Shown piece by piece: positions 36,493-59,882 of a stretch of DNA of 64,000 nt (its first letter is position 1; each line of letters opens with the position of its first letter). The translations under genes were made by a program, and so were the position numbers. The stretch is from positions 32,001-96,000 of the forward strand of contig BTUM01000016.1 of the NCBI GenBank assembly GCA_045863235.1, given 5' to 3'. The stretch comes from Candidatus Xenobia bacterium (GTDB taxonomy: Bacteria; Vulcanimicrobiota; Xenobia; Xenobiales; QWHO01). The notes under the pieces are model-generated. The model searched no databases and was not told where the DNA came from. It saw only the letters and a program-made list of their open reading frames with translations.

Positions 36493-37488
36493 TCAGCAGC
36501 GAGCGCCAACCGCTCCCCGCGCTGGGCGCAACCGGACCATCACTCCGCCCACCTGCACCGCCTGGTCGCCCTCCACGATGCCGCTCCCGGTGCCCTCGAT
36601 GCTCCACTCGCGGACCTTCTGGGCCTCCTTGTCGGCCTCTCGGAAGAGCTCCAACTGCGGTTGCCAGCGGTCCAGGATCTCGAGCTGCTTGTCCTGGTCA
36701 TGGATGATGAGGACGGGCAGGATGGCCAGTCCGAGCGCCGCGATAGGGAACCCGATGGCCGGGTGGCCCGACCCCGCGATCAGCATCCCGATCCCGAAGG
36801 CCCAGGGCGACGCCGAGCCGATGCGACCGAGCAGCGCGTCGCGCTGCTTGATCTCGAGGCGCTTGCGCTCCAGGGTCTTGTCGTCGGGACCTTTGAGCCG
36901 CTTGAGGTCCTTCTTCAGGAGCTCGCGCGCCGGTGAGGCTTCGGGCTTGTGCTCCGACTCGAGCACGGTCCGAGTCGCGCGCAGCAGGCTGCGCAGCTGG
37001 CCGAGCGTGGCCTCACCACCCAGCGAGACCGTGGGCGACGCGACCGGGCTCCCGGTGGCCGGCGAGAAGCTCCTGGCGTCGAGCTCCTCCTGCAGGGCTT
37101 TGTCCGCCTCCAGAGCCATCTCCCGGTCCACCTGTTCGACGACGGACCAGAGGCCCACTCCCATGGAGCCTGCGAGACACCCGAAGGAGGCGAGAGTGCC
37201 CAGCACCCCGTTCGGCTCTCGCGAGATCAGGGTGACCAGCCCGGCCAGGAACGCTCCGCTCAAGAGGAGCTTGCCACCGAGCTTGTAGGTCGCCTTGCGG
37301 GCCTGGGAGCGGAGGTGTCGCTGCACGTCCTGCACCGTGTCGCCCGGGTTCTTCTCCAGCACGTCGATGCGCTGCTTCACCTGACGGTAGGCGATGTCGG
37401 TGGCCGGGTTGGACAGGTGCGGCTCCAGGCGGGTGGCCCGCTGGCGAAGGTCCTCCAGAAGGTGGGACTTGGCGACCTGCACATGCAT
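36493..37488 (-). CDS. Hypothetical membrane protein (two helical+TM-hairpin units) with conserved C-terminal GGV tail
   Basis: ATG 37488 behind TTCAG-repeat promoter; tail SGIVEGDQAVQVGGVMVRLR. Confidence 0.75.
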   Translation of the reverse strand: MHVQVAKSHLLEDLRQRATRLEPHLSNPATDIAYRQVKQRIDVLEKNPGDTVQDVQRHLRSQARKATYKLGGKLLLSGAFLAGLVTLISREPNGVLGTLASFGCLAGSMGVGLWSVVEQVDREMALEADKALQEELDARSFSPATGSPVASPTVSLGGEATLGQLRSLLRATRTVLESEHKPEASPARELLKKDLKRLKGPDDKTLERKRLEIKQRDALLGRIGSASPWAFGIGMLIAGSGHPAIGFPIAALGLAILPVLIIHDQDKQLEILDRWQPQLELFREADKEAQKVREWSIEGTGSGIVEGDQAVQVGGVMVRLRPARGAVGARC

Positions 37489-37528
37489 GGCGCCACAGTC
37501 TGCACTCCGAGGCTGAAAAAAACCTGAA
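37489..37528 (-). promoter_or_regulatory. TTCAG direct-repeat leaderless promoter
   Basis: TTCAG-GTTTTT-TTCAG, 10 nt, CAGACT, 8 nt, ATG. Confidence 0.7.
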
Positions 37529-37616
37529 ATGGCCTGCCCGCCCACGCCAGAGTCCGACCAGGATCGCGCGAGCGCTGAACAGGACTCCAGCTCCCGCTCC
37601 TCCAACCACCACCCTC

Positions 37617-38252
37617 ATGGAAGGTTACTACACCGAGCTTCTGGCCGCGTTCGTGCGGGGCAAGCTGGGCCTGGCAGGCGAAGCGGGCCTGGACGATCTC
37701 ATGCAGCAGGCCCGAGCCCACGAGCTGCGCACCCACAAGTTCAAACGCTCGGCCGCGCTGCCCCGAGTGCGCAAAGTGTTGGGTGTGCTGCAGCAGCTAC
37801 GACCGGCCAGCCTGCTCGACTTCGGCACCGGGCGCGGGGTGTTCTTGTGGCCGCTGCTCGACGAGTTGCCCGAGCTCGCGGTGACGTGCCTTGACCTGCG
37901 CCCGGACCGCATCGAAGACTTGCAGGCGGTGTCCAGGGGCGGCATCGGACGGTTGACCGCTCGACAGGCTGACCTCGCGCGGCCGCTCGACTTTCCCGAC
38001 CAGAGCTTCGACGTGGTGACGGCGCTGGAAGTGCTCGAGCACATGCCTGACCCTCTCCCGGCCGTGCGCGAGGCGGTCCGCGTTGCCCGCCAGGCCGTCA
38101 TCGTCAGCGTGCCCTCGCAAGAAGACGACAATCCCGAGCACTTGCGGCTGTACACGCAAGACTCCCTGCAGAAGCTGCTCTACCAGGGCGGGGCGAGCAA
38201 GGTGCGGGTGGAGTACGTGCTCAACCACATGGTGGCGGTGGCCCGTGCATAA
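37617..38252 (+). CDS. Class I SAM-dependent methyltransferase (Hen1-like motifs)
   Basis: LLDFGTGRG, FDVVTALEVLEH, SVPSQEDDNPEHLRLY. Confidence 0.85.
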   Translation: MEGYYTELLAAFVRGKLGLAGEAGLDDLMQQARAHELRTHKFKRSAALPRVRKVLGVLQQLRPASLLDFGTGRGVFLWPLLDELPELAVTCLDLRPDRIEDLQAVSRGGIGRLTARQADLARPLDFPDQSFDVVTALEVLEHMPDPLPAVREAVRVARQAVIVSVPSQEDDNPEHLRLYTQDSLQKLLYQGGASKVRVEYVLNHMVAVARA

Positions 38253-40117: not shown

Positions 40118-40156
40118 GTCCCGCGATGAATTGTTAAAAGGTCAGCGCGGGGCGCC

Positions 40157-42904
40157 TTAAGCCCGGTTCCTGCGCCGCACCAGCGCTCCCCCGAAGGCCA
40201 CGAAGGAGCTGCTCTCCAGCACTCCCGAGCCGGCTTGCTCGCTGACCACCCCGTGTTCGCGCAGGGCCTGCTCGACGTCGCCGCTCCCCCGAGCGGTGCG
40301 CCAGATCTCTAGTCCGCGCTGAAAGCGCTCGGCGTCGCTCTTCTCGCGCAAAAGGCCGGCCAGCTCGACCCGGGTCAGAATGCCCTGCAGCGTGTGCCAC
40401 TGCTCCTCGGGCTGGCCGGCGCCCACCAGCTCGGTGAAAGCGGCCATCGCCTCAGAGCGGTGCTGGGGACCGAAGCGCTCCACCAGCTCCCCGCCCCAAC
40501 CGCTCGCCCCCTCAGCCCAGCTCTCCACGACCTCGTCGGAGACATAGCCCTGAGTCTGCTCGATGCGCGCCAGGATCGCGCAGGCTCGCTCGGGCTCGAC
40601 TCCCTGGCGCAAGCGCTCCCGGTCGAGCTGCTCGAAGTGGTCGTGGGCATTGCTCCTCACCTGGTAGATCGTCGGCTGGCGCGACTCGGGAGCGGCGAGG
40701 GCGCGCAGCCGGTCCTCCAGCTCAGGGGCCCCCTGGGCCAGAGGCAGGGCCAGCACGAAATCGGCCAGATGCTCGTTGGAGAGCTTCTCCAGTGACTCCT
40801 GGCCGGTCAGCCGGCTGCCCAGCCACAGTCGCACCCGGGCCCTGTCGGCCTCGCTCAGATCGTTCAGCATCGCCAGAGCGGCCCGCAAAGGGGGAAGCTC
40901 GAAGGGGTCGCGCTGCTCCTGGGTATTGCCCCGATGCACCGTATGCTGCACGCAGATGGAGGCGGCCGCCAGCCGCTCTTGCAGGTCGCCCGACTGCAGG
41001 CCGGCCATGGCCTGCTCGAGCACCCGGTTGCGAGCCTCTTCGACCAGCGGCTCGAACCAGGCCTGGGAATAAGGGAGGCTGGCCTGGAGCAGCTCCCCCA
41101 GGCGGGCTTTCGTCTCCGGGGTGAGCGGGATGGAGGCCAGCACGGCCAGGTGATTGCGCGTCCGGGCATCGCACTCGATCAGACTTCCCGCCCCCGCAAG
41201 ACCGGAAGCGATGGGGTCGAGCAGGCGCTTCTCCAGGGCCGGGTCGGGCTCGGGAGCGAGCAGGGCAAAGCAATCGGCCGACCCCTCCCAGCAATTCTTC
41301 GCACCGGGAATGAACGACTGCTCCACCTTGTCCGAATCGAGCAGGTGAGCCAGCAAGGCCTCGCGATAGGGAACCAGCTGACCCTTCGGGTCGGCCAGCA
41401 TCAGCCCGTCCAGGTCCAGGCTGCGGGCCAGCCTCAGAGCCGGAGCGGTAAAGGTGTAGCGGGTCAGGTTCAGCTCGCCCTGTTTGGCCCCCTGCGGCAC
41501 CATCCAGCTGGTCAGCCAGTCCTTTTGCAGGGGGTCGGGCTTCCAGCCGGCCTTCAGGGCCGACTCGAAGATGGCGAAGTGGGCCGTATCGGGGTAGCTC
41601 GTCTGGCGCTGCCTCAACGTCTCGGCCGCGATCGCCGGGGCCAGTTGGGGCTGTTTCCTCATCAGGGTGAGCAGGTTGCGCACGCCCCAATTGAGCCCGT
41701 CGTAGCTGGTGTTGTTGAGGATCGCGCCCACCTGGGCTGTCACCTGCTCGGGGTTGGGGGGCGAAATCTCCCACAGGGCCGAGCAGAAGTCCAGGATGCC
41801 GCGGCCCTCGATGCCCAGTGCCTCGGCCCGGTCGGGCACCTGCTCGAGGGCCTGGCGGTGGGGCTGAAACAGCTGGTCCAGCCGAGGACTCTTGCGCGAA
41901 TCAGAGATAAGCCGCGCCATGGCCGACAGGTCCTCGTCGGAGGGGCGTCCGGCGGTAAGCTCCTCGACCAGCGCACGAGCGACCTCAGCGGCCTGCTCGG
42001 GCATCGTTTCGGCCAGCACCTCCAGCCGCTTGACTCCCTTGCGCTCGTTGAGAAGGGGGATCTGCTCGAGGATCTGGCGAGCCGCGGTCCTGACCTCGGC
42101 CGACGTGGAGGGCGGCGCTGCCTCGAGCTCGAGCCGAAGACCCCGCACCGGGACGGGGCCCTCGAGCAGGGTAGCCTCAAGCTCTCCCTCGACCTGACCG
42201 TAGCGGCGCAGGAGGTCGCAAGCCCGGGCGGCCAGGGAGAGATCCAGCTCGACCGGCTCCTTCTCGCGTAGGTCAGGAGCAAGCTCTTCCCGGCTGCGTC
42301 GCAGGTGCTTATGGGCCAGCAGCATCAGGCTGCGCAGGGCCGCCGGCGTGGCGGGCTCCTTCTGCAAAGCGCTTTCGAGCCGATCCAGGGTCAGCTGGAC
42401 GCGCTCGGCGTCAAAGCCCGAGATGCGGGCCTCCCAATCGATTCGCTGGCTCGCTCCCTCGACCGGTCCGTAGAACACGCACAGCTCCTCCAACCGGTTG
42501 CCCCCGTGGACATTGGACAGGGTCCGCCGGGCCAGGTAGCGGGTGACCGGGTCGGGGCTTTCGGCCCACTTGTGCGCCCCGGTGCCGCTGACGATCTCGG
42601 GCATGGCGCTGGCTCGCTCGGCCAGCCGCAGCTTGAGGGGCCAGAGGTCGGCGGGGGGTTGCTCGGGGGGCAGGGGCTGTTCAGCTTGCGAGGCTGGGGG
42701 CTCGGCAGTGGGGAGAGGAGCGGGTGCGGAGGGCCCCGGACGCGGGCCTCCCAGTTCGGTCTGGTCCAGCGGGTCGGCCTCGAAAGCCTGGCCAGGCCGG
42801 GCGGCCGTCTGGGGACGGGCGGCGGCAAAGTTTGAGCTCAAGGCACGCAGCTCGGGGGTCACTGTCAGGGGAGTTCTGCCCGGGGCGGGTTGTTTCCCCT
42901 CCAA
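40157..42904 (-). CDS. Large helical hypothetical protein with Pro-rich N-terminus and C-terminal GGV-type tail (start uncertain)
   Basis: 915-aa ORF; tail SGVLESSSFVAFGGALVRRR. Confidence 0.75.
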   Translation of the reverse strand: MEGKQPAPGRTPLTVTPELRALSSNFAAARPQTAARPGQAFEADPLDQTELGGPRPGPSAPAPLPTAEPPASQAEQPLPPEQPPADLWPLKLRLAERASAMPEIVSGTGAHKWAESPDPVTRYLARRTLSNVHGGNRLEELCVFYGPVEGASQRIDWEARISGFDAERVQLTLDRLESALQKEPATPAALRSLMLLAHKHLRRSREELAPDLREKEPVELDLSLAARACDLLRRYGQVEGELEATLLEGPVPVRGLRLELEAAPPSTSAEVRTAARQILEQIPLLNERKGVKRLEVLAETMPEQAAEVARALVEELTAGRPSDEDLSAMARLISDSRKSPRLDQLFQPHRQALEQVPDRAEALGIEGRGILDFCSALWEISPPNPEQVTAQVGAILNNTSYDGLNWGVRNLLTLMRKQPQLAPAIAAETLRQRQTSYPDTAHFAIFESALKAGWKPDPLQKDWLTSWMVPQGAKQGELNLTRYTFTAPALRLARSLDLDGLMLADPKGQLVPYREALLAHLLDSDKVEQSFIPGAKNCWEGSADCFALLAPEPDPALEKRLLDPIASGLAGAGSLIECDARTRNHLAVLASIPLTPETKARLGELLQASLPYSQAWFEPLVEEARNRVLEQAMAGLQSGDLQERLAAASICVQHTVHRGNTQEQRDPFELPPLRAALAMLNDLSEADRARVRLWLGSRLTGQESLEKLSNEHLADFVLALPLAQGAPELEDRLRALAAPESRQPTIYQVRSNAHDHFEQLDRERLRQGVEPERACAILARIEQTQGYVSDEVVESWAEGASGWGGELVERFGPQHRSEAMAAFTELVGAGQPEEQWHTLQGILTRVELAGLLREKSDAERFQRGLEIWRTARGSGDVEQALREHGVVSEQAGSGVLESSSFVAFGGALVRRRNRA

Positions 42905-42922: not shown

Positions 42923-44056
42923 TCAGCCGGGTGCGAGCCTCTTCTTGAGTCGTACCGAGCCGAAGCGGACGCTGCCAGCATCCTCGGTCACGGCCGAGGA
43001 GGAGTCCTCGGGAACCACTCGCAGCTCGAGGCGGCTCACGTCCCCGTTGCGCCGGGTGACGTAGAGCCAGCCCTCGGGCCCCCGGGCGGCGCCCACGATG
43101 TCCGAGGGAACCTCCAGCTCCTCGCCCAGGCAGATCAGGCGCGGCGCGCTCTTGCTCCCGGTGATCAGAGCTCCGTCCGACCCCATCGTGTTGACCTCCA
43201 GAGTGGGATCCACCGGCAGCTTCTCCACCAGGCCCGGCAGCACGCCCCGCTCGCTCCCATTCGCATCGAAGAGGTGGACCGCGCCTCCAGCCAGTGCCAG
43301 AGCGATCGAGCCGGGAAGGCCCAGCCCCGGCTGGCCGGGCAGACTGAACTCGCCCAGGGCAACGTCCATCTCCACGCGACCCGTGGCCGGCTGGAGAGCC
43401 ACCAGGTGGTGGCGCATCCCCGGCTCCATGGTGATGAAGTAGTAACGCCCATCGGGACCGAGCCGGGGAGGACGCCCGGCGATTCCGGGCAGATCTTTCA
43501 AGCGCTTGCTCTTGAAGAGCAGGGAGGTAGGGTCGTAGCGCACCACGCGCCCCTGGTTACCGACCAGCAGCACCGACTTGCCCGGTCCCGGGAGCACGAA
43601 GAAACTGTGAGGGGTTCCCAGCGCGTCGTGAATCCTGGCCTTCTCATTGCCGTCGGGGTCGAAGGCCAGCAGCATGCATCCTCGGGTCGAGACGTAGATG
43701 CGCTCGCCCTGCACCACCGGCGCGTTCATCGGCTCAAGGAGAGGTCGGGCCCAGAGCAGCTTACCCTCGGGGCTGATCCGGTGCAGGTTGCGACCGCCCA
43801 GGACGTAGACCGAGCCGTCGGGCGCAGGCGTCGGGGGGTGCTCGAGCGGGCCTTTCAGCCGGCAGCTCCACACCGGTGCTCCGCTCGCATCCAGGGCCTG
43901 CAGGTTGCCCGAGCGGTCGCCCGCGTAGACCCGGTCGGCCGCCAGGACGGGAGGCAGATCCACCGGCTCGTCCGCCAGCCGGGCCAGGGTGGTCAGCACG
44001 GGCCGGGGGGTCCCAAACAGGGTCGCAGCCGCAGTGCTCGAGGAGACGGTTGCCAT
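42923..44056 (-). CDS. PQQ-like beta-propeller protein with C-terminal GGV-type tail
   Basis: Repeats such as YAGDRSGNLQALDASG..VW; tail SAVTEDAGSVRFGSVRLKKR. Confidence 0.8.
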   Translation of the reverse strand: MATVSSSTAAATLFGTPRPVLTTLARLADEPVDLPPVLAADRVYAGDRSGNLQALDASGAPVWSCRLKGPLEHPPTPAPDGSVYVLGGRNLHRISPEGKLLWARPLLEPMNAPVVQGERIYVSTRGCMLLAFDPDGNEKARIHDALGTPHSFFVLPGPGKSVLLVGNQGRVVRYDPTSLLFKSKRLKDLPGIAGRPPRLGPDGRYYFITMEPGMRHHLVALQPATGRVEMDVALGEFSLPGQPGLGLPGSIALALAGGAVHLFDANGSERGVLPGLVEKLPVDPTLEVNTMGSDGALITGSKSAPRLICLGEELEVPSDIVGAARGPEGWLYVTRRNGDVSRLELRVVPEDSSSAVTEDAGSVRFGSVRLKKRLAPG

Positions 44057-44096
44057 ACTCCACCAGTATGCGCGGGCCCGCTGAAGAGAAGCTGAA
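44057..44096 (-). promoter_or_regulatory. TTCAG direct-repeat leaderless promoter
   Basis: TTCAG-CTTCTC-TTCAG, 10 nt, CATACT, 8 nt, ATG. Confidence 0.7.
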
Positions 44097-44139
44097 CCCC
44101 GCCCGCACCGGCTTCTCCACCTGCGGCCAACGAGGGAAT

Positions 44140-47153: not shown

Positions 47154-48911
47154 TTACCCTGCCACGAGCTCTCCGGCCAGCCAGGCGCGCAAAGCGGCCG
47201 GGTACCAGTCCCAGGTCCCCTCGAAGCGGGCCGCCAGCGACTGAAGGCCATGCTCGCGCAACTCGCCAGCCAGCTCGGCGCGGCGCTCGGCAAAGCCGCT
47301 GGAGAGCTGCTCGGTGCCAAAGTGCACGCTCTCCTCGCACAATCCCCAGGCTTTGCGCACCAGGGCCGCCAGCGGGTCGGCCGGGGGGTCCAGGGCGATC
47401 AGGGGTAGATCCCAATCGGGGGCGGGCTCCTCCAGATCGGGCACCACCACGCGGTCGGGGGTGCGGAAGGCGACCGGCTCGAGCACCAGGTCGCCCGCCT
47501 CGTGGCGCAGAAAGCCGCTCACCTGGACGGCCGACGGCAAGCCCCGGGCCAGCGCGTCCAGAGCGCCGGGCACGGCCCCCTCGTAGGCTCGCGCGATGCG
47601 CACCTCCTCCCCCTCCGGCAGGACGGCGCTGGCCACGATCTCCTGCTCGCCCGGGGCGTAGGCTACCTCCACCTCGGCCAGGCTCAGCACCACGAAGTCC
47701 TCGGCCAGAACCAGGGGGCGCAGCAGGCGCGGCGGGCGGGGAGGAAACTCGAGCGACTGCAGCGACTCGGGCAGCGACTCCCAGGCCTGGCCCAGGGGCA
47801 TCACCGAGTGCTTGCTCTTCTCGCGCCTCAGAGTCAGGCTGCGGTTGGCGTGGCGGCGCACGCCCTGGCTGACCAGCTGGCCCCGGGCCAGGTCGCGCAG
47901 GCGCACGTCGCCGGCCAGAGTGACTCCCGGACCGGTGTAGGCGCGCTCGAGAACCAGCACCTGGCCGGCCGGGTCGGCCAGGTAGAGCCGTACCCGATCA
48001 CCCTGAATGCGGGCGCCCAGCGAGATCAGTCGCAGGTGGTCGAGTTCGGTCTCGGGCGCGGTGTCCTGGCCCAGCACGTAGGTAGCCGACAGCTCGCTCA
48101 CACCGGCCAGGCGGGTCCGCAGGCTGAGCAGGGCAAAGGCCGCCTCGCCCACCTTGTAGCGACCCGAGCTGGCTTTGTAAAGCGCGAGCTGCTCTTGCAG
48201 GCTGTCGAGCAAGACCAGCGGCCAGGTCATGCCCGCCAGCTGCCGGCGAGCTCTCTCGAACTGGGCCTCCAGGCCTTCGGCGTGGACGACCCCTTCGCGC
48301 AACAAACGCTCGCTCAGGGCCTCTACGGCCGAAAGCTCGTGGCGGCGGGATCGGGTGGCGCCGAACTCGACCGTCTGCTGACCCTGGCGGGCAGCCCAGA
48401 CGGCCAGGGCCAGGTGCGCGCAGGCTCCCTTGTCAGCGCAGTCGCAGCGAGCCATGGAAAGCTCGCGGGGCACAAGAAAGCGCACCGAGCAGGTGGGCAG
48501 GCGCACGGCGGCGCCCTCCACCTGGGCCCGAAAGCCCTTCGCCAGCAAGGCCCGGGCTTTCTCCAGCAGGCGCTTGCCCAGAAAGCGCTCCAGCTCCTCG
48601 TCGCCGATCTCACCCGGACTCCAGGGCACTTCGTCCGGGGCCTCGCCTCGCGGGTAAGCCAGGGCCACCGCCACCCGGTGGCGGCAGACGGTGGTGGCGA
48701 GGCAGGTGCAGTTGCCCTGAGCCAGGCTCTTGCCGGGCGGCAGCGTGGCCACCACGCCGTCCTCGAAGATTCCCCGCACGGTGCCGTCGGGGTCTTCTTC
48801 CAGGCGCGGGCCCCTGCCCTCCTCAATCTCGCGGGTGGCCCGCTTGACCAGCCCCATGTTGGACAGAGCCGCGATCGCCTCCGGGGTCAGGGCGGCCAGG
48901 TCGCTGCGCAT
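47154..48911 (-). CDS. SWIM zinc-finger protein (YehQ-like)
   Basis: N.GLVKRA; CTC....CRH and CDC....CAH; TGATG coupling to VWA gene. Confidence 0.85.
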   Translation of the reverse strand: MRSDLAALTPEAIAALSNMGLVKRATREIEEGRGPRLEEDPDGTVRGIFEDGVVATLPPGKSLAQGNCTCLATTVCRHRVAVALAYPRGEAPDEVPWSPGEIGDEELERFLGKRLLEKARALLAKGFRAQVEGAAVRLPTCSVRFLVPRELSMARCDCADKGACAHLALAVWAARQGQQTVEFGATRSRRHELSAVEALSERLLREGVVHAEGLEAQFERARRQLAGMTWPLVLLDSLQEQLALYKASSGRYKVGEAAFALLSLRTRLAGVSELSATYVLGQDTAPETELDHLRLISLGARIQGDRVRLYLADPAGQVLVLERAYTGPGVTLAGDVRLRDLARGQLVSQGVRRHANRSLTLRREKSKHSVMPLGQAWESLPESLQSLEFPPRPPRLLRPLVLAEDFVVLSLAEVEVAYAPGEQEIVASAVLPEGEEVRIARAYEGAVPGALDALARGLPSAVQVSGFLRHEAGDLVLEPVAFRTPDRVVVPDLEEPAPDWDLPLIALDPPADPLAALVRKAWGLCEESVHFGTEQLSSGFAERRAELAGELREHGLQSLAARFEGTWDWYPAALRAWLAGELVAG

Positions 48912-50041
48912 CAAGCCGAGACCCGCTCGCCGATCCAGGCGGCCAGCTGGCCCGGCGTCATGGCGCCCACATGGGCGCCCACGTCCACCAGCCGGCCGGC
49001 CAGCTCCTTGTCATAGATCGGCTCGGCTCCCTCGTCCAGGGCGGCCAGCCCCAGCACCGTGGTACCCTGCTCGCACAGGCCTTTGACGGTGCGCACCAGG
49101 CGCTGGGCGTCTCCCCCCTCGAAGAAGTCGGTGATGAGCGCGATGATGGTGCGACGAGGGTTCTCCACCAGGCCGGCAGCAAAGTCCACCGCTTTGGCGA
49201 TGTCGGTGCCCCCGCCCAGCTGCACCCGCATCAACAGCTCGACCGGGTCGGTGCAGTCGGCTGTCAGATCCACCACCTCGGTGGAGAAGACCGCCAGGTG
49301 CGTCTTCAGCATCGGCACCGACCAGAAGCAGGCGGCCGTGATGGCCGAGTGGATCACCGAGCCCAGCATGCTGCCCGACTGATCCACCAGCAGGATCAGC
49401 TGCCAGGCGGCCCGGTGGCGACGGCTGCGCTGGAAGAAGTAGGCCTTCTCGAGGTAGAGCTTGCGCGTCTCGGGGTCGTAATGCTTGAGGTTGGCCCGCA
49501 CCGTGCGCTCGAGGTCGAGGTCGCGGGAGAACTTGAAGGGGGACGAGCGGGCGTTGCGACGCGGGCCCGAGAAGCTTTTTTGCACTTCGCGGGCCAGCTT
49601 CTCCATCAGCTCCTCGACCACTTTGCGCACCAGCTCGCGGGCCAGCTCGAGCACCTCGGGGTTCATCAGGTGGCGGGTCTTGAGCACCGCCTGCAGCAGC
49701 GTCTGGTTGGGCTGGACCCGCTTCAAGACCTCGGGATTGGTCACCACCTCGTCGATCTGGAAGCGCTCCACGGCGTCCTTCTCCAGCCGCTCGATCGTCT
49801 CGCGGGGAAACAGCGTGTGGACCTGGTTGATCCAGTCGGCCACCGAGAGCTGGGGCGCCTCCTGACCGCCCTTGCGCCCCGCCATGATGTCCCGCGACTT
49901 CAGGCCCGGGTCGCGGTTATAGAGCCAGGACAGAGCCGCATCGCAGGCCCCCTCCTCGCCCTGCAGGCAGCAACCGAGCTGGGGCTGGGAGGCCTCGCCC
50001 AGCACCAGGCGCCAGCGTACCAGGCCGTCCTCATAAGCCAT
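48911..50041 (-). CDS. VWA-domain protein (YehP-like)
   Basis: RWRLVLG, MIDAS DQSGSM, GGGTDI, ITDFFEGG. Confidence 0.9.
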   Translation of the reverse strand: MAYEDGLVRWRLVLGEASQPQLGCCLQGEEGACDAALSWLYNRDPGLKSRDIMAGRKGGQEAPQLSVADWINQVHTLFPRETIERLEKDAVERFQIDEVVTNPEVLKRVQPNQTLLQAVLKTRHLMNPEVLELARELVRKVVEELMEKLAREVQKSFSGPRRNARSSPFKFSRDLDLERTVRANLKHYDPETRKLYLEKAYFFQRSRRHRAAWQLILLVDQSGSMLGSVIHSAITAACFWSVPMLKTHLAVFSTEVVDLTADCTDPVELLMRVQLGGGTDIAKAVDFAAGLVENPRRTIIALITDFFEGGDAQRLVRTVKGLCEQGTTVLGLAALDEGAEPIYDKELAGRLVDVGAHVGAMTPGQLAAWIGERVSA

Positions 50042-52178
50042 AGCGCTCGATGGTCCTTTCCAACTCGGCGTCGAGCTGCATGCCGGCCGCCACCAGGGCG
50101 GGGTCCACCGCGTTGCGCAACAGCTCGAAGTTGGACTCCAGCCCGTAGAGCCGGGCCACGATGGCGGCCACGGCCTGGCGTTCGCGGGGAGGGAAGGCGG
50201 AAAAGGCCAGGCGCAGGCCCGGCAGGGCGCGCAGAAAGTCGGTTCGGTCCAGCCCCCTGAGCAGCTGATCGACCAGCCTGAGCAGACCCTCGGCCCGCTG
50301 CACCTCCTCGCGGGCCAGGGCAAAGAGGCCGGCCAGGAAGTCTCCCAGGGCCTCGGGGGGATGCAGGGCGCGCACGGCTTGCTCGGCCTCCTCCTCGCCG
50401 GGAACCAGCTCGAGCGACCAGAGGTAGCCCAGAGCGGCGCCCTGGCACACTCGGGGTGCGTCCTTGAGCCGCCTTCGCATGACCCCTTCAGCCAGCTCGC
50501 GCGCAAGCTCGAGCTCGCGGCCCAGCTTGTGCATGTCGCGCAGGGTGACCACCGCCTTGACGATGCCGGCGGTGGCGCCGTCCAGACCTTCGAAGAGCCA
50601 CAGCCCGCGGGCGAAACCGGCCTGGAGGATGACTGGAAAGTCGGGTCCCAACTTCTGACGGTAGAGCCCGAAGAGGGTGCTCAGGGCACCGCCCAGGAGC
50701 TCCAGGTCGACCTCTGCCCCCAGCGCCCGGGCCACCTCCTGCACCAGCTCCCGGCCCAGCTCGGTGAGGCCGGCCCTCACGGCCAGGGCCAGGCAGGCCG
50801 CCAGGCCGACCGCATCCGTCTCGCCCGAGAGGGCCTGGCGCAGCACCCCGATGGCCGCCTGCTCGAGGTCGGAGCCGTAGGCCGAGGCCTCCACCAGGGC
50901 CGCCTCCAGGTCGAGGCTCTCCTGCAGCACCCAGGTCTCCTCCACCAGCTCCTCTGCCTTCAGGTGAAAGCCCGGCAGCCGCAGCAGGGCCAGGCGGCGC
51001 AGAAAGTAGCTTCTCTCCGTGCCCACCTCGACCGTCACCTGGCGGGCCGGCCGGGTGGGCTTCAGCTCGAGCGCCTCCAGGGCGGCCAGCACCTCGTCCA
51101 CCAGCGGCGGACGGGGCGTGCCGCCGGCCAGCTTGCCCACCCGCTTGCCCGAGAAGGCTGCCACCAGCTCCACCAGCACCGGGTCGGTGCCCGCCCCGAG
51201 TGTCCCCCGCCGGCTCCAGGGCAGCTCGCTCTGCAGGGCCTCCTTGACCAGAGCGCCCACCAGGCCGTCCAGCAGATCGGTGCGCATCGGGAAGTCGTGA
51301 CCACGCAGCCGGGCCAGGCCGTGGGCCAGCGTGCTGGCCGCCACCAGGTCGGCTGAGGAGAGGGCCAGCTTCTTGTCGCGCAGGCGGTGGGTCACGTCGT
51401 GCAGGGCCCGGCGGGCGGCCTCGCCGGCCCCCGCCTCCCAGACGTGCTGGTAGTAGCCGGGCGAGGGCATACCGGCGTCGTAGCCCTGAAAACTGTCCAG
51501 CCGGTGGAAGCTGAAAGGCACCAGATAGCTGCCGGTATCGCTGGCCGGCTCGAGCTCGGGCCACTCGGATCGGGGAAGGGCCTCTTCCAAGAAGGGCGCG
51601 TGGTAGCCTCCGCACACGGCCACCACGCGGTCTTCATAGGTATGCCGGGCCCAGCCCAGGCAGGCGGCCATGTAGGCCTCGCGCTCGGCATCCTCGGGGC
51701 TGACGCTGGTGCGAATGGTTTGAAAATAGCGCCGGAGGCGGTCTTCCAGGTCGTCTCCAGGATGTTCGAAGAGGTGGTCCCAGAGGCTGTCCGGGTCGTC
51801 GAAGCCCAGCTCGCGAGCCAGCTCGTCCTGGCCGGGCTCGCGTCGGTCGGCGTAACGGTTGGTGCGCTCGCGCATGGATTTGTGCCAGGCCGGCAGGTCC
51901 ATGAAGCGCACATCGGCCCCCAGCTCGCGTCCCACCGTCAGGGCCACCCACTCGGGCGAGTAGGCGCAGAACGGCGTCCAGGCAGCGCACTCGCCCTTCT
52001 GGAAGCTGAACACGGCCAGGGGTAGTTGGTGGCCCAGGTGCAGCTCGTCCAGGCGGCCGTTGAAGTCGGACGGCCCTTCGATCAGCACGCAGGCCGGTCT
52101 GACCGCGCGCAGCACCCGCTCGACCAGACGGGCGCAGGCGGGGCTGTGATGGCGGATACCGAGGACCCTGGTCGCCAT
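50031..52178 (-). CDS. DUF5682 family protein (YehM-like)
   Basis: GIRHHSPACA, LIEGP.D, SPEWVA, RE.YMA, CGGYH, GY.AGMPSP. Confidence 0.88.
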   Translation of the reverse strand: MATRVLGIRHHSPACARLVERVLRAVRPACVLIEGPSDFNGRLDELHLGHQLPLAVFSFQKGECAAWTPFCAYSPEWVALTVGRELGADVRFMDLPAWHKSMRERTNRYADRREPGQDELARELGFDDPDSLWDHLFEHPGDDLEDRLRRYFQTIRTSVSPEDAEREAYMAACLGWARHTYEDRVVAVCGGYHAPFLEEALPRSEWPELEPASDTGSYLVPFSFHRLDSFQGYDAGMPSPGYYQHVWEAGAGEAARRALHDVTHRLRDKKLALSSADLVAASTLAHGLARLRGHDFPMRTDLLDGLVGALVKEALQSELPWSRRGTLGAGTDPVLVELVAAFSGKRVGKLAGGTPRPPLVDEVLAALEALELKPTRPARQVTVEVGTERSYFLRRLALLRLPGFHLKAEELVEETWVLQESLDLEAALVEASAYGSDLEQAAIGVLRQALSGETDAVGLAACLALAVRAGLTELGRELVQEVARALGAEVDLELLGGALSTLFGLYRQKLGPDFPVILQAGFARGLWLFEGLDGATAGIVKAVVTLRDMHKLGRELELARELAEGVMRRRLKDAPRVCQGAALGYLWSLELVPGEEEAEQAVRALHPPEALGDFLAGLFALAREEVQRAEGLLRLVDQLLRGLDRTDFLRALPGLRLAFSAFPPRERQAVAAIVARLYGLESNFELLRNAVDPALVAAGMQLDAELERTIERYGL

Positions 52179-52190
52179 CGTGGCGCCTAG

Positions 52191-52310
52191 AGGCCCGGCC
52201 GGAAAGGCCGGGCCGATCTACATCTTGTGGCTAGGAGCCGGCCGCCTACACAACATCTTGTGGAGACGGAGGTTTCCTCCGACTCCACAAGGGGGTTTGC
52301 GGCCGGACTC
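52191..52310. mobile_element. MITE/REP-like 120-bp element flanked by CTAG
   Basis: CTAG at 52187-52190 and 52311-52314; imperfect terminal IRs AGGCCCGGCCGGAAA / GAGTCCGGCCGCAAA (rc); two internal hairpins. Confidence 0.55.
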
Positions 52311-54350
52311 CTAGTCGCCATCCCGGGGCCGGAACCAGAAGCTCAAGGCGTAGAGAGCCAGCGCGGTGAGATAGAGCGAGCGAAGTCCGAAAGCCATGGA
52401 GGTGTATTCCAGAGCGCCCCCGACCATCGCCCCCAGCATGTTGCAGGCCAGCGCGCTGGTGGCTCGTTTGGTCCTGGAGAAGGAGACGCCGAAGATGATG
52501 GCCGCGAACAACAGGGGCACCGAGATACCGGCCACCGCCCCCATCTTGGCGAGCACCGAGGCGCCCACGCTCAGCTCGCGCAGGGGCACCAGGTAGAGCA
52601 GCACCACCACCCCCAGCAAGAGGGCGTAGGGCAGCTCCAGAGCGGGTTTCTTCTCGCGCCCGAGCAGCCACACGTTGGCCAGGAAGATCATGGTCAGAAT
52701 GCTGGCGATCACGATGGAGTTGACGATCCAGGTGGAGCCGAACATCAGCCCCAGCTCGGTGATGCTCTTGGTCTCGATGAGCATGAAACCGGCCCCCAGG
52801 AAGAACATCTGGGGCTGGAACTGAAAGCCCGTGCCGCGCACCGTGGTGGAGATGAGCAGGGTGGAGATGAGCAGCAGAATGCCCAGCGCGATCAGATATT
52901 CCTTGGGGATGGTCTTGTTGTTGAGATAAAGCTGGGGCCAGTCGTCGGTGGCCTGGATCAGGGCTCCGGGCATGTTGGCTCGGGCATTCTCGACGTTGAC
53001 GTTGAGGCGCACCTCGCCCTCGACGTTGACCTGCTGGGTGATGGGAGCTTCCTGGCAGATGTACTGCGAGTACTGCTGGTTATAGATGAAGAAGGCAGGG
53101 TCCTTGCCAAACACGTCGCGCAGGGTGACGAAGAGACGAATGGGCACGAACTCACCCATGTAGCCCACGTTCACGTACATCACGCCGTCCTTGGCCAAAA
53201 GCCTGCGTGCCTCTTCGAAAGACTGGCGGGTGTAGACGTAGTTCTCGATCTTGATGCTGGACATCTGTGAGAACAACCCGTGCGAGTCGAGCGTGCCGAA
53301 GATGATCAGGTCGTACTTCTCGGTGGCCCGGCGCAGATAGGAGCGAGCGTCGTCGTTGATGAGATGCACCCGCGAGTCCAGATAGGCCTTCATGGGGTGC
53401 CGCTCGCGCCCGAGGCGGGCCACAATGGGATCGATCTCGACCGCGTCCACCTGCTCGGCGCCCTGCAGCAGAGCCATGGCCACGTCGTTGCCCATGCCGC
53501 CACCCAGGATGAGCACTTTCTTGGGGTGGGGCTTGAAGATGTAAGGGAAAGCATAGAATCGACGGAAGAACTCGCTCCCCTTCTCGGGCGAGAGGTCCAG
53601 GCCGGTCAACAGGCAGCTGTTGCCGATCTGGATGTAGACGTTGCCGTTGGGCTCGGTGTGAAAGCGGATGTTGTAGTAGGGAGACCAGTACTTCTCGTAG
53701 TTCTTGCTCTTCTCCAGGTGGCCCTCGAAACCGTAGAGCCCCATTCCAAGGAAGACGGCAAAGAGGACAAAGGCTGCCTTGCGGTGGGTGAAGGGCAGCA
53801 AGAGGAGCATCCCCACGGTGACCCACACGGCCGGGCCGGTGCAGAGGAACGAGAGGATGGAAAAGCCCGCGATCCCGAGCAGGCTGGCCAGGATGTTGAC
53901 GGTGTAGGCATAAAGCGGCGGAAACTTGTCGAAGTAGCGCTGCAACAGCTGTCCGAGCGGCACGAACGTCATGGCCACCAGGGTGGTGAACAGGGCCAGC
54001 GTGAGGTACATGTCGATGTGGCCTTCGCGGTTACCGATGTACGCATCGTCATTGAAAAAGACCCCCTCGTTGGGAGGCCGCACCTCGATCTCGAACTTGA
54101 GGAAGACCGCGAAAAGAGCCATCTGCACCAGGCAGAACAGCACGAAGCGCGTCAGCAGCGCGTCGTCGGTGTCGCGCTCCTTGAGCGGGCGGGCCAGGCC
54201 GATGCCCAGGCCCAGAAAACACGAGAGCAGAACGAAGTTCGAGAAGAACCCGAAGAAATGAATCGCGTCCGGCAGCCAGCGGATGAAGAGTAGCTCGAAG
54301 AACAGTACCAGAAAGCTGGCTAGAAACAGCTTGATTTTGTGGTCACGCAT
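52311..54350 (-). CDS. Polytopic membrane protein with spermidine-synthase-like SAM domain
   Basis: TM bundles either side of VLILGGGMGNDV...VEIDP...DDAR; ATDDWP; FFLGAGFMLIET. Confidence 0.85.
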   Translation of the reverse strand: MRDHKIKLFLASFLVLFFELLFIRWLPDAIHFFGFFSNFVLLSCFLGLGIGLARPLKERDTDDALLTRFVLFCLVQMALFAVFLKFEIEVRPPNEGVFFNDDAYIGNREGHIDMYLTLALFTTLVAMTFVPLGQLLQRYFDKFPPLYAYTVNILASLLGIAGFSILSFLCTGPAVWVTVGMLLLLPFTHRKAAFVLFAVFLGMGLYGFEGHLEKSKNYEKYWSPYYNIRFHTEPNGNVYIQIGNSCLLTGLDLSPEKGSEFFRRFYAFPYIFKPHPKKVLILGGGMGNDVAMALLQGAEQVDAVEIDPIVARLGRERHPMKAYLDSRVHLINDDARSYLRRATEKYDLIIFGTLDSHGLFSQMSSIKIENYVYTRQSFEEARRLLAKDGVMYVNVGYMGEFVPIRLFVTLRDVFGKDPAFFIYNQQYSQYICQEAPITQQVNVEGEVRLNVNVENARANMPGALIQATDDWPQLYLNNKTIPKEYLIALGILLLISTLLISTTVRGTGFQFQPQMFFLGAGFMLIETKSITELGLMFGSTWIVNSIVIASILTMIFLANVWLLGREKKPALELPYALLLGVVVLLYLVPLRELSVGASVLAKMGAVAGISVPLLFAAIIFGVSFSRTKRATSALACNMLGAMVGGALEYTSMAFGLRSLYLTALALYALSFWFRPRDGD

Positions 54351-54386
54351 CCCGGGATGCCTTCCTCGGGGGCCGGTCCAGCCCTG

Positions 54387-54462
54387 CTAGAGGTCGTACC
54401 GCAAACCCCTTGTGGGGAGGGAACCTCCGCCACCACAAGATGTTGTAGGCGGCCCGACTTCT
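54387..54462. repeat. Second, partial and inverted copy of the 52.2-kb element
   Basis: Reverse complement aligns with ~52232-52314 (GGCCGCCTA..CAACATCTTGTGG..CGGAGGTT.CCTCC..CCACAAGGGG.TTTGCGG..CTAG). Confidence 0.75.
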
Positions 54463-54628
54463 CTGGATTATGCTTCACAGCCAACTGCGCGCGACTGAAG
54501 GGGGAAACGGTCGGAATCGCCAAAGGAGTTCGCCACGCCTTCGGGCAGACGGGGGGTGCTCAGTGAAAATCTTCTTCATCCCGGGCGGGGCTCCAGGAGC
54601 GCTGACGCTCTGAGATCAGGGCGCGGGG

Positions 54629-55468
54629 TCAGCCACCCCGCCGCTTGAGCACCACGCCTCCCACCGCCACACCGCGACCGAGCTGGCCGATCGAGCTGCC
54701 CTGGGGCTCATGCTGCTCTTTCAGGGCCAGCACCTCCTGGAGCGAGCGCATCGCCCCCCCTGCAATCATGGTGTTGAGCTGGTTGCCCCCTTCGTGCTCT
54801 TCCCAGAAATTGTAGTTCGAGAACCCTTTGGTGAGGAAGTCGAGGCTCTTGCGGGTGCAGTCGAGCTGCTGCTCGGGGTCAAAGCGCGCCACCAGGTTGG
54901 CCAGTGCCCGGACGTGGGCGAAGCCAGGCTGCTCGGGGTGCCACTGGTCCGACTCCACCGAGGCGGCCATGGTCCGACCCAGCTGTACCAGCTGGCTGGG
55001 GGCGAGGTCCTGGTCCAGAGCCTCCATGGCCAGGTCCACCGGACGACCGGCGCAGTAACGGGCCTGGGTCTGCTCGCGGCTCTGGCGCACCAGGCAGGGC
55101 CCCTCGGTCTGGGGCAATTGCGACTCATCGCCCAGGATCGCCAGGGCCAGAGAAGCCACCGGTCGGTCCTGCAGGGCACCAAACAGAAGGTTGGCCGCCT
55201 GCAGGCGAAGCTCCGGCTCGTGGGCGGGGATCTGCCTCACCAACTCGCGCCCCCGCGTCAGCATGGCCTCGCCCGACATGGTCTTCAGTTCTTCCACCGC
55301 CGCCAGGTTGCGGGCTCGTTCGGCCCGCTGGGCAGCGATGTAGGCCTGCGCCTCGGCCAGCGCCTTGTCGTAGTCCGACTGCCCGGACCGGTAGGAATCG
55401 CCCGAGGAGCTGGCCCGGGCGGGCAGACTGAGCTGGTTGTGAGTGAAGACATGGGCGCCGATCCGCAT
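54629..55468 (-). CDS. Hypothetical helical protein with C-terminal GGV tail
   Basis: 279-aa ORF; tail SSIGQLGRGVAVGGVVLKRR. Confidence 0.75.
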   Translation of the reverse strand: MRIGAHVFTHNQLSLPARASSSGDSYRSGQSDYDKALAEAQAYIAAQRAERARNLAAVEELKTMSGEAMLTRGRELVRQIPAHEPELRLQAANLLFGALQDRPVASLALAILGDESQLPQTEGPCLVRQSREQTQARYCAGRPVDLAMEALDQDLAPSQLVQLGRTMAASVESDQWHPEQPGFAHVRALANLVARFDPEQQLDCTRKSLDFLTKGFSNYNFWEEHEGGNQLNTMIAGGAMRSLQEVLALKEQHEPQGSSIGQLGRGVAVGGVVLKRRGG

Positions 55469-55506
55469 GACTTGTGCTTAGCAGTGGACCCTGAAAGAAA
55501 GCTGAT
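55469..55506 (-). promoter_or_regulatory. TTCAG direct-repeat leaderless promoter
   Basis: ATCAG-CTTTCT-TTCAG, 10 nt, TAAGCA (weak -10), 6 nt, ATG. Confidence 0.6.
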
Positions 55507-55515
55507 CGGCTGTTC

Positions 55516-55583
55516 TGAAATGGGGCGCCCATTCAGGGCGGGTCCGTGTCCTGAATAGGGCGCCCCATTCGGGCGCGTCCGTG
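55516..55583. repeat. Tandem palindromic ~33-bp units forming a long hairpin
   Basis: AATGGGGCGCCCATTCAGG pairs with CCTGAATAGGGCGCCCCATT; both units end GGGCG.GTCCGTG. Confidence 0.6.
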
Positions 55584-55602
55584 GGCTTGCCTGAAGCCAG
55601 AC

Positions 55603-57429: not shown

Positions 57430-57565
57430 TGTTTCCCCCTTCTGTTTGTTGCTGCAAGGATCATACGATAGAGCAGCGTCCGCCTGGCACATTCAGGCGA
57501 GCGGGGTTGAGTGCCGCCTGGGAAGCGGGGCGAGGGAGATTACCAGGCAGATCAATTGATCTAAT

Positions 57566-58651
57566 TCAGGGCAGGGCGTGCCGGGCGTCGAAGAACGCCT
57601 TCCAGAGCGGCCCGCGGCGCTTGGAAATACGCTGCTCGAGGTAGCGCCGCAGGCGCTTGACGTCCTCGGCGTTGTCCTTGATGGCCGTTCCCAGGATGCA
57701 CTCCATCAGGTCCTCGGGGTTGGCGGACCGGCCGCCCAGGTAGTGGGCCCGGATGCCCACGGCGTGGGCCACCGAGACCGCCTCGGCGGTGGACATGGCG
57801 GTGCTGAGGCGCTCCAGAGCGTCGCCCTCGGGGGTCTTGCCTTCGCGCAACTCGCGGAACGTGGTCACCAGGATTTCCAGCAGGTCGCGCGGGGGTGCCT
57901 GGGGCACCCCCGAGCGCTGCAGGAGCTGAGCCGTCTCGCGCTCGACCAGCTCCAGCTCCACCTCACGGTCTGCGATGGGGAACACGGTTTCGAAGTTGAA
58001 GCGGCGCTTGAGAGCGGCGCTCATCTCGTTGGTGCCCCGGTCGCGGGTGTTGGCCGTGGCCAGCAGGTTGAAGCCCTCGCGGGCGTAGAGCCGGGTTTCC
58101 TCGCCCTCGAGCTCGGGCAGGAACAGCACCCGGTCGGACAACACCGAAAGCAGCGAATCCTGAATCTCGCTCGGGCAGCGAGTGATCTCCTCGAAGCGCA
58201 CCACTTTGCCGTGCAGCATGCCGAGATAGAGCGGAGCCGGCACCAGCGCCTTGCGGCTGGGCCCCTCGGCCAGCAGCAGGGCGTAGTTCCAGCCGTACTT
58301 GATCTGGTCTTCGGTGGTGGCGGCGCTGCCCTGGATGGTCAGGGTGGACTCGCCGCTGACGGCCGCGGCCAGAAGCTCGGACAAGAACGACTTGGCCGTG
58401 CCCGGCTCGCCCACGAGCAAGAGCCCGCGGTTGGTGGCCAGGGCCACCATGGCCCGATCCACCAGCGAGGGGTTGCCCACGAACTTGGGCCGGATCTTCT
58501 GTTTGGGATCGCCCAGAATGAAGCTGCGCACCGCCCGGGGCGAGAGGGCCCAACCGGGCGGGCGCGGGTCTTTGTCGCTCTTTCTCAGCCGGGCCAGCTC
58601 GTCGGCGTAGACCAGCTCGGCCGGAGGGCGCTGCAGGCTATCGGTGGACAC
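57566..58651 (-). CDS. MoxR-type AAA+ ATPase (YehL-like)
   Basis: RPPAE, RPPGWALSP, GEPGTAKS, RFEEITR, ATANTRDRG.NEMSAALKRRFNF; GTG start inferred. Confidence 0.9.
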   Translation of the reverse strand: MSTDSLQRPPAELVYADELARLRKSDKDPRPPGWALSPRAVRSFILGDPKQKIRPKFVGNPSLVDRAMVALATNRGLLLVGEPGTAKSFLSELLAAAVSGESTLTIQGSAATTEDQIKYGWNYALLLAEGPSRKALVPAPLYLGMLHGKVVRFEEITRCPSEIQDSLLSVLSDRVLFLPELEGEETRLYAREGFNLLATANTRDRGTNEMSAALKRRFNFETVFPIADREVELELVERETAQLLQRSGVPQAPPRDLLEILVTTFRELREGKTPEGDALERLSTAMSTAEAVSVAHAVGIRAHYLGGRSANPEDLMECILGTAIKDNAEDVKRLRRYLEQRISKRRGPLWKAFFDARHALP

Positions 58652-58691
58652 GAGGGCCGCGTTCGACCGCCCGGGGTGGGTTCCCTGGGTT

Positions 58692-58730
58692 GTCAGGCTC
58701 CTTTCAGCCGTCGGGCTTACACTGTTCCCT
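58692..58730 (+). promoter_or_regulatory. TTCAG direct-repeat leaderless promoter
   Basis: GTCAG-GCTCCT-TTCAG, 10 nt, TACACT, 7 nt, ATG. Confidence 0.7.
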
Positions 58731-59882
58731 ATGCTGCGACCCGTGTACGCCGCCTCGGCCAACCCGCTCTACGCGCTGCAATCTCGGCGCGAGAACGAGG
58801 TGGTGGCCTGGCGCGAGAAGTTTGAGGGCGACTCCTGCCGCCACCCCTCTGGCTCGGTGGTGGTGAGCGACGGCCAGCGCCTGATCAAGCTCTCCGAGAC
58901 GGGCCATAGCGAGTGGAAGGTGGACAACGGCAAGTGGACTCCTTTCCGCCCGGCCGCCTTGCCCAACGGCGGCGCGGTCTGGTCGCCCGGCGGGAAGGGC
59001 ATCACTTTCTACACACCCGGGGGCGCGGTGCAGAAAGTTTGGGGGGGCGAGCACCAGACCCAGACCACCGTCCCCACCGTGGCCCCCGATGGCACCGCTT
59101 ACGTCTGCCTGCGCACCGAGGACGGCTCGGTGCTGGCCGCCCTGCGAAGTGACCAGGACGAGCCTGTGTGGGTAGCCAGACTCCCCTTCTTCGGCTCCGG
59201 GCCGTGCCTGCCGGATGGGCAGGGCGGCGTGATCTTCCGCACCGACGACGACCGGGTGCTCTCCCTCGATAAGGACGGCCAGGAGCGCTGGTGCCAGAAG
59301 CTGCCCGTGCGGGTCGACGGCCAGCTGGCTCTGGGCCCGAAGGGCGAGATCTACATCGGCTCGGAGAAGGGCCAGGTCTACCGTCTGGCCCCCGAGGACG
59401 GCGCTGTCACCCCCTTCTTCAAAGCCCGCAAGGCGGTCAGGGCGGCGCCCACGGTGACCGAGGAGGGCCGGGTCTACCTCACCAGCTTCGACCACAACCT
59501 CTACGCCGTCAGCCCCGAGGGCAAGGAGTTGTGGCACCACGACTGCGAGGACCTGGTGGACAGCTCGCCGGCCGTGCTCGATGACGAGACCGTGGTGGTA
59601 GGCAGCAACGCTGGCAAGGTCTGGGGCCTGTCTCCCGAGGGCGAGGAGCGCTGGTCGCAGGAAGTCGATTTCTGGGTCGAGGGCGCCATCCTGAGCGACG
59701 GACGCACGGCCTACGTGGCCGGCAAGGACGAGGTGGTGGCTCTGCGCCCGGGTGGCATCGCGGCCGACCTGGACGACTTTGCGATCGCGCCCGCCAACCA
59801 GGTCGGCGAGCACGGGGGCAAGGTGGTGGTGGGCGGGGTGCGTCTGCCACGCTGCACCCGGCGTGGAACAGGCTGCGACTGA
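58731..59882 (+). CDS. PQQ-like beta-propeller protein with C-terminal GGV tail
   Basis: Repeats such as YLTSFDHNLYAVSPEGKELW; tail NQVGEHGGKVVVGGVRLPR. Confidence 0.85.
   Translation: MLRPVYAASANPLYALQSRRENEVVAWREKFEGDSCRHPSGSVVVSDGQRLIKLSETGHSEWKVDNGKWTPFRPAALPNGGAVWSPGGKGITFYTPGGAVQKVWGGEHQTQTTVPTVAPDGTAYVCLRTEDGSVLAALRSDQDEPVWVARLPFFGSGPCLPDGQGGVIFRTDDDRVLSLDKDGQERWCQKLPVRVDGQLALGPKGEIYIGSEKGQVYRLAPEDGAVTPFFKARKAVRAAPTVTEEGRVYLTSFDHNLYAVSPEGKELWHHDCEDLVDSSPAVLDDETVVVGSNAGKVWGLSPEGEERWSQEVDFWVEGAILSDGRTAYVAGKDEVVALRPGGIAADLDDFAIAPANQVGEHGGKVVVGGVRLPRCTRRGTGCD

Follow-up and report, generated by a model that had tools for sequence, protein, structure and literature searches.

Five genes in a stretch of 64,000 nucleotides from a Candidatus Xenobia bacterium (contig BTUM01000016.1, positions 32,001 to 96,000, hereafter the window) encode proteins that end in the same short tail. 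The search of the host genome (8.36 Mb, 97.6% complete, 7,016 called genes) with an iterated profile showed a strong tail within 30 residues of the stop codon in 180 genes. Judged by its sequence, the tail behaves like a C-terminal docking or sorting peptide, but it fails membership of every described family tested. The reading we favour, with a probability of about 45%, is that the tail is a β-hairpin docking tag on type III-type cargo, bound in the cytoplasm by a putative chaperone or adaptor. It is unlikely to be the primary export signal and probably serves as a second address instead.

Sequence and position of the tail

The tail consists of 18 residues with the consensus G-[VI]-x-E-x4-[VL]-x-[VI]-G-G-V-R-[VL]-[RK]-[RK], of which the first half is acidic and the end is basic (mean charge +2). 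The linker before it is rich in Gly, Ala, Pro and Ser, and a median of four residues follow the motif (at most 10 in 157 of the 180 genes, with a range to the stop of 1–30).

The initial annotation of the window had described the tail in five open reading frames (ORFs), and all five were found with their tails where it had placed them, four on the minus strand and 58731-59882 on the plus strand. A hidden Markov model built from these five tails alone gave 86 matches of at least 8 bits among 42,214 six-frame ORFs, and 83 of the 86 lie within 25 residues of the stop. The iterated profile, at a score of at least 18 in the last 50 residues, recognised 178 of the 6,171 called proteins of 120 residues or more with a bimodal score distribution, while the same number of mid-protein windows gave no match and neither did five shuffles of each tail. 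A looser threshold gives 188 carriers, including a few false positives, and the strong set is the 180 genes mentioned above. The weak profile matches rejected as false positives include the last hairpin of an FHA domain and an integrase; the FHA protein was removed before the Pfam families were counted. A profile made from 46 tails of other genomes gave 116 matches at 8 bits, 112 of them C-terminal against 14% expected by position; as these 46 tails were originally found with the own-genome profile, the check is not fully independent, and it recovered two of the five window tails at 8 bits.

Eleven strong matches lie more than 25 residues from the protein end: three at 26–30 residues, seven deep within the protein and one that is probably due to chance. 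The deep internal tails mostly precede an appended repeat region or represent a second copy. In four genes, an internal tail is followed by about 200 residues of short tandem repeats (G000:C3:76161-78410, C3:123379-125997, C32:68044-70242 and C135:163-2361). Moreover, one database protein carries two tandem tails. The internal and tandem copies indicate that the tail does not require a free C-terminus, and their arrangement is compatible with a docking motif.

The DNA identity between tails has a median of 46% and a maximum of 76%. Identical tail residues use the same codon with a frequency of 0.469, against 0.445–0.448 expected from codon usage, conservation is concentrated at codon positions 1 and 2, and the downstream DNA is not conserved; the tail is therefore not a DNA repeat, and such an origin was ruled out. 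In a family of nine proteins sharing 22–90% identity, four of the 15 invariant columns fall in the tail. As read from these alignments, selection acts on the residues of the tail and not on its bases.

AlphaFold2 models the isolated tail as a hairpin centred on its Gly-Gly turn (pLDDT, the predicted local confidence, 75; pTM, the predicted template modelling score, 0.37, a low-information value), and the tail is thus predicted, with modest confidence, to form a β-hairpin. The predicted fold had no structural match at Z ≥ 2 among 48,161 chains, the best hit of a profile search of the PDB sequences had an E value of 0.25, and the ESM Atlas, queried with one tail, gave no usable match.

Carrier proteins

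The bodies of the carriers fall into 83 clusters, the largest with 37, 27 and 14 members, and 61 of the clusters are singletons; the proteins are 73–1,814 residues long. The Pfam scan of 145 of the 188 carriers identified 24 propellers, six MAM-like repeat proteins and two matches of a catalytic type, while 113 proteins belonged to no family. Many of the small carriers have a coiled-coil-like segment directly before the tail. The tail genes are mildly clustered, as 30 of them adjoin another tail gene compared with 8.8 expected.

The five window proteins had been described as having unrelated bodies, which is correct overall, except that the two PQQ-type propellers share a Pfam family, so that there are four body types. 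A real signal was expected to be concentrated at C-termini, to occur in more than one homologous family and to match no described sorting domain, and the C-terminal matches, the 83 body clusters and the family searches described below agree with this on all three points.

Promoter regulon and N-terminal region

The promoter of the tail genes is composed of two TTCAG-type repeats 11 nucleotides apart, a spacer of 10 nucleotides, a TAnnnT box and 6–7 nucleotides to the start codon. It was detected upstream of 116 of the 188 tail genes and of 129 other genes, about 245 genes in all. In the window, four tail genes carry it (scores 32, 25, 27 and 32) and the fifth (40157-42862, score -22, no promoter of its own) lies directly behind one of them, 42923-44056, as had been noted before. 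This layout suggests activator-dependent, leaderless transcripts. The 11-nucleotide spacing of the repeats recalls SARP or OmpR-type regulators.

The N-termini of both promoter groups begin with M-x-[IV] and are rich in Ser, Pro and Thr; residue 3 is Ile or Val in 66% of cases. A motif resembling D-x-V-x-L-S is present in 22% of the carriers and 13% of the tail-less regulon members, compared with 2% elsewhere. The absence of a Sec signal, recorded earlier for the five window proteins, extends to the carriers in general: by a simple heuristic, 21% of 5,867 other proteins have a Sec-like N-terminus, whereas it picked out none in one set of 111 carriers and about 1 in a set of 69. A classifier of N-termini trained on the tail-less regulon genes only separated the 111 carriers from 2,864 held-out proteins with an area under the curve (AUC) of 0.90, and it reached an AUC of 0.80 for the 69 carriers that have no promoter. 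Flagellar subunits have a hydrophobic N-terminal export signal (PMC8983047), with which the early Ile or Val would be compatible. A Ser/Pro/Thr-rich N-terminus with an early hydrophobic residue, as in the non-cleaved signals of type III substrates, is seen here at the level of sequence only, and the structural substrates of the export locus mostly score low for it.

Of the tail-less regulon genes with a strong promoter (118), 55 were scanned, and 19 of them matched catalytic families, among them acyltransferases, phosphodiesterases, peptidases, an amylase and glycosyltransferases. Among the carriers, the corresponding number was 2 of 145 (Fisher p = 2e-10, a value that is overstated, as paralogues do not count as independent and enzymes could be hidden among the unknown bodies). 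On these assignments, the tail marks the non-catalytic half of the regulon. The tail-less part also includes a caleosin-like protein (L181:51-626; G000:C13:65121-65699), and this protein, together with the MGDG-synthase-like, acyltransferase and phosphodiesterase members, hints at a lipid-rich eukaryotic partner.

Export genes of the host genome

One gene cluster encodes FlgB, FlgC, FliE, FliF, two FliG, FliH, FliI, FliJ, FliM, two FliN, FliO, FliP, two FliQ, FliR, FlhB and FlhA, and rod proteins, a rod-binding protein and FliK-like proteins are also encoded in the genome. The type III export core (FlhA, FlhB, FliP/Q/R, FliI, FliF and FliM/N) is thus present. Flagellin, MotA and FlgI were not found in this genome (97.6% complete), which accordingly does not qualify as encoding a motile flagellum. 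Likewise, the system falls outside the injectisome definition of PMC3459982: flgB, flgC and fliE are present, the export locus contains none of the secretin matches, and its 81-residue protein has no family or PDB match to identify it as an SctF needle. The three secretin matches of the genome, to type II secretion and type IV pilus systems, are all in other loci.

Downstream of flhA, there is a conserved gene for a 104-residue protein followed by tandem copies of a gene for an 81-residue protein without a family, and this order recurs in other classes. The 104-residue protein (G000:C27:57162-57476) matches no family, occurs between flhA and the 81-residue genes in several classes and is a candidate chaperone. 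The three tandem copies of the 81-residue gene lie 4 kb downstream of flhA (G000:C27:55986-57006; L005:15989-16231 and copies). The 81-residue protein is predicted to form one long helix, with no family or PDB match, and is a candidate filament or needle subunit. Its family is multi-copy and highly conserved in 24 of 80 genomes of the phylum, and partial matches were found in two records titled as Acidobacteriota lineages. Five stand-alone proteins have only the cytoplasmic domain of FlhA, two of them fused to FliG N-domains (Table 1), and partial matches of this kind recur across the order; they are possible cargo adaptors. The complex prediction for the tail and two copies of the FlhA cytoplasmic domain scored 0.00, which is no evidence either way.

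Distribution of the tail

The window stretch occurs in sludge, digester and bioreactor runs. All five genomes of the genus contain 119 to 150 or more tail matches, and among the 26 other genomes of the order one has nine, one has five and the rest have 0–3 weak ones. At the level of the phylum, at least 22 of 401 genomes have a tail match, with only 19 candidates scored per genome. A broadened profile applied to 80 further genomes showed 5–45 matches in eight of them, belonging to four families, and single weak ones in four. The single weak matches outside the tail-rich lineages were not trusted, because of two that were inspected one was internal and one below the profile threshold. Where regions of other genomes were retrieved, the profile matched 59 times, and 53 of these matches lie within 30 residues of the stop. 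The tail first described in five proteins is therefore a C-terminal element of 180 genes in its own genome, and distant families of Eremiobacterota have it at their C-termini as well.

Of 49 distant carriers, 32 have a homologue in the host genome, and for 30 of these 32 the best match is itself a carrier, which indicates joint inheritance of tail and body across long distances. Only 2 of 13 carriers of one genome from another order had the promoter. The marker of the export locus, the 81-residue protein, is present in all eight tail-rich genomes of the 80. A flagellin match was obtained in 5 of the 11 tail-rich genomes and in none of the other six, so the tail goes with the non-motile system and not with the flagellum.

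Searches of whole databases returned 10 and 24 matches; all named ones are hypothetical proteins with labels consistent with this lineage, beyond which profiles as short as these have little power. Two genomes of a sister family contain a divergent tail that is acidic and ends in IGD[VI]S[LI]P or IGGF (L053, L055, L059 and L065). Related tags elsewhere may be missed by the present profile.

Comparison with described tags and secretion systems

A C-terminal tag shared by unrelated bodies is known from the tripartite sorting signals LPxTG, PEP-CTERM and GlyGly-CTERM and from the C-terminal domain of the type IX secretion system. The tail resembles them in this respect, but it has no transmembrane helix and its carriers lack a Sec signal. 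None of the 89 tails searched against NCBIfam matched a family at E values up to 1, and the Pfam search returned only five unrelated families, none of them for more than 2 of 80 tails and with 0.025 as the best E value. The initial annotation was right in separating the tail from these four types.

In signals of the type IV secretion system (T4SS), an acidic block precedes hydrophobic and basic residues, and Agrobacterium substrates have an arginine-rich tail. The carriers are similar, being Sec-less proteins in their hundreds whose C-terminal region changes from acidic to hydrophobic and basic. In Legionella, the C-terminal E-block signal is linked with DotM (PMC5802825). In contrast, the tail motif is far sharper and tolerates internal positions, and the genes expected for a T4SS were not found: VirB4 (PF03135) was not found in the host genome (Dot/Icm-specific models were not searched), and the coupling protein TraG-D_C (PF12696) was detected in 0 of 11 tail-rich genomes and 1 of 25 overall, while the positive controls of both searches gave matches. 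Searches for other machines were also negative. HlyD (TIGR01843) of the type I secretion system was above the cut-off in 0 of 25 genomes, with only weaker efflux-like matches. No contractile injection sheath (PF04984) was found with positive controls, models specific for the type VI sheath not having been searched. Cargo-loading peptides of encapsulins have a consensus like LxVGSL[RK], and the tail shares with them its short C-terminal form, the VG[GS] core, the basic end and the flexible linker. However, the family 1 shell protein Linocin_M18 (PF04454) was not found with positive controls (other encapsulin families were not searched), and the carriers reach 1,814 residues and include proteins with hydrophobic segments.

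FlgN, FliS and FliT bind C-terminal regions of flagellar subunits. In the injectisome, the C-terminus of the substrate YscX binds YscV and docks at the export gate (PMC9163089). Like these elements, the tail would be a second, C-terminal element on a substrate with an N-terminal secretion signal; they are helical and belong to one or two structural subunits, whereas the tail is a predicted β-hairpin on 83 body clusters.

The non-flagellated predator Lysobacter enzymogenes OH11 re-uses its flagellar type III export genes for protein secretion, and three substrates are reported (PMC7688988). Both bacteria have flagellar export genes without flagellin, and the export of non-flagellar proteins was proposed for OH11. 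The abstract of that study reports no tag common to the three substrates, while here there are a regulon of about 245 genes, a conserved 81-residue locus protein and a tail on about 180 proteins. The needle-less type III system of Myxococcales lacks FlgB, FlgC, FliE and FliG (PMC3459982). It is similar in being a flagellum-derived export core of free-living bacteria without a secretin, a motor or a recognisable needle; the difference is that FlgB, FlgC, FliE and FliG are kept here together with rod proteins and FliK. No description of the tail, or of a type III system in this phylum, was found in the literature covered, partly as excerpts and including few subscription journals. There is a real chance that the tag and the machine together represent a new system.

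Function of the tail

According to the mechanism we favour, an activator binding the TTCAG repeats would switch on about 245 genes together, and the N-termini of their products would route them to the FlhA/FlhB/FliPQR gate of a non-motile flagellum-derived machine. A putative cytoplasmic chaperone or adaptor would then bind the tail and hold, order or dock the non-catalytic class, i.e., the β-propellers, long repeat proteins and membrane hairpins, for export. The role of the N-terminus is suggested by its composition and by the hydrophobic N-terminal signal of flagellar subunits. The tail was first proposed as a small β-hairpin tag read by an export or loading machine; the hairpin agrees with the prediction, but the primary secretion signal is probably not the tail, because about 129 co-regulated tail-less genes share the N-terminus and tail-free relatives keep the export core. 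An intracellular reader is favoured because C-terminal docking has precedents in type III systems, the flagellar chaperones among them, and because a single partner within the bacterium could be kept across classes more easily than a single target in a host. YscX on YscV is a further precedent (PMC9163089).

Several observations weigh against this mechanism. No recurrent partner or chaperone-like family was found among 316 genes flanking tail genes, and no reader was identified. The export cluster itself has no TTCAG promoter, and FlgB, FlgC, FliE and the 81-residue protein score below the threshold of the N-terminal classifier; leaderless translation could shape the first residues without any role in export. 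The 81-residue marker also occurs in 16 genomes that are not tail-rich (of the 24 that have it), FlhA is present in 31 of 31 relatives, 26 of which have few or no tails, and the genomes are kin, so that the co-occurrence of tail and marker is not independent. The secretins of type II secretion and the type IV pilus offer alternative routes.

The main rival, anchoring after export, ranks close behind the intracellular reader and is possible although doubtful: the N-terminal type III-like signal alone would export the proteins, and the tail would act afterwards, anchoring them on the cell's own surface or appendage or binding a conserved protein or acidic membrane of a host or prey. This would agree with the N-terminus of the tail-less regulon members, with the basic end of the tail and with the fact that tail and body stay together across families. 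The tail also tracks the cargo class, with propellers, MAM-like and unknown proteins among the carriers and lipid, sugar and peptide enzymes among the tail-less. However, this reading has no known receptor or host to draw on, the target would have to be very conserved for the tail to persist in sludge and other habitats alike, and the variable distance to the stop and the seven internal copies exclude end-dependent host signals.

A self-association module, resembling a miniature foldon and either oligomerising the carriers or co-assembling them into a shared polymer, is an improbable reading. The predicted hairpin, with its alternating hydrophobic residues and complementary acidic and basic halves, and the coiled-coil-like segments of the small carriers would suit such a module, but tandem and internal-plus-terminal copies fit avid partner binding better than a fixed stoichiometry, and monomer-like propellers also carry the tail. 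Still less probable is a primary C-terminal export or loading signal for a T4SS, a type I or type II secretion system, a contractile injection system, an encapsulin or a type IV pilus. The acidic-hydrophobic-basic order resembles T4SS signals, xVGSVRL variants resemble encapsulin loading peptides and the type II and pilus secretins are present, but the marker proteins of the other machines were missing in the searches above, and type II cargo normally needs a Sec or Tat signal, of which the Sec-like ones are lacking in the carriers (Tat was not tested separately). A protease-adaptor or turnover tag clearing unexported proteins, which co-induced and potentially harmful proteins could need for rapid removal, is very improbable, as known degrons usually need a free end and the tail end is variable. 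A by-product of DNA repeats is excluded by the codon-position pattern and low DNA identity described above.

We tentatively suggest that several classes of Eremiobacterota may operate a third type of secretion device derived from the flagellum, in which rod and ruler are kept, motor and flagellin are lost and the 81-residue protein is a new subunit. Its several hundred substrates would have a two-ended code: a type III-like N-terminus for all, and a universal C-terminal hairpin read by one chaperone or receptor that sorts the scaffold and membrane class from the enzymes. With their sharp 18-residue tag, the roughly 180 candidate substrates differ from type III substrates in general, which are known to lack a common signal that can be aligned. 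From the sequence alone, the tag and the scorable promoter allow the cargo of an uncultured lineage to be predicted almost completely, and the tail is a small, portable peptide for finding its reader and for studying how a genome may encode the hierarchy of export or the sorting of cargo. The system hints at a so far undescribed form intermediate between flagellum and injectisome, and at a lifestyle directed towards hosts or prey. Predatory behaviour was proposed for a related family in a study that also annotates secretion systems (PMC9259500), and the bacterium examined here may have a predatory or symbiotic lifestyle.

Features of the window

The features are listed in Table 1. The start of the carrier that had been annotated as 40157-42904 is more likely at 42862, which gives 901 residues; its identity as a carrier was confirmed.

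Table 1. Tail carriers, promoters and related genes. Positions refer to the window, except for the last row, which gives contig positions in the genome.
Feature	Position	Strand	Details
331-residue carrier, two hydrophobic hairpins and helical segments, no Pfam family	36493..37488	-	tail 36529..36582, score 34, 11 residues before stop
TTCAG direct-repeat promoter with -10 box	37497..37534	-	8 nucleotides before ATG, predicted leaderless
~901-residue carrier, no Pfam family, 14-member body cluster	40157..42862	-	tail 40172..40225, score 25, 4 residues before stop
377-residue PQQ_2-type β-propeller carrier	42923..44056	-	tail 42941..42994, score 37, 5 residues before stop
TTCAG direct-repeat promoter	44065..44102	-	
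279-residue carrier, no Pfam family	54629..55468	-	tail 54641..54694, score 28, 3 residues before stop
TTCAG direct-repeat promoter	55475..55512	-	
TTCAG direct-repeat promoter	58686..58723	+	
383-residue PQQ_2-type β-propeller carrier	58731..59882	+	tail 59799..59852, score 36, 9 residues before stop
Tail-less regulon member, MGDG-synthase-like glycosyltransferase, same kind of N-terminus	26685..27950	+	promoter 26641-26678
Tail-less regulon member, 164 residues, no Pfam family	16290..16784	-	promoter 16791-16828
Stand-alone FlhA-domain proteins	G000:C80:28012-29436, C3:26973-28175, C1:377631-378854, C106:14866-16857, C107:13658-15829		

A further TTCAG direct-repeat promoter is present upstream of 63486-64199. 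The regions 47154-52178 and 57566-58651 contain SWIM, VWA_CoxE, DUF5682 and MoxR-type AAA genes, i.e., a MoxR-vWA-type module interleaved with the tail genes. Contigs from RNA libraries cover the region of the window, but the coverage is flat over all genes and could come from DNA, and we make no claim of expression. At 52185-52310 and at about 54424-54461, contigs of public runs skip sequence or break off, with inverted joins between about 52275 and 54424, which suggests that a small repeated element flanks 52311-54350.

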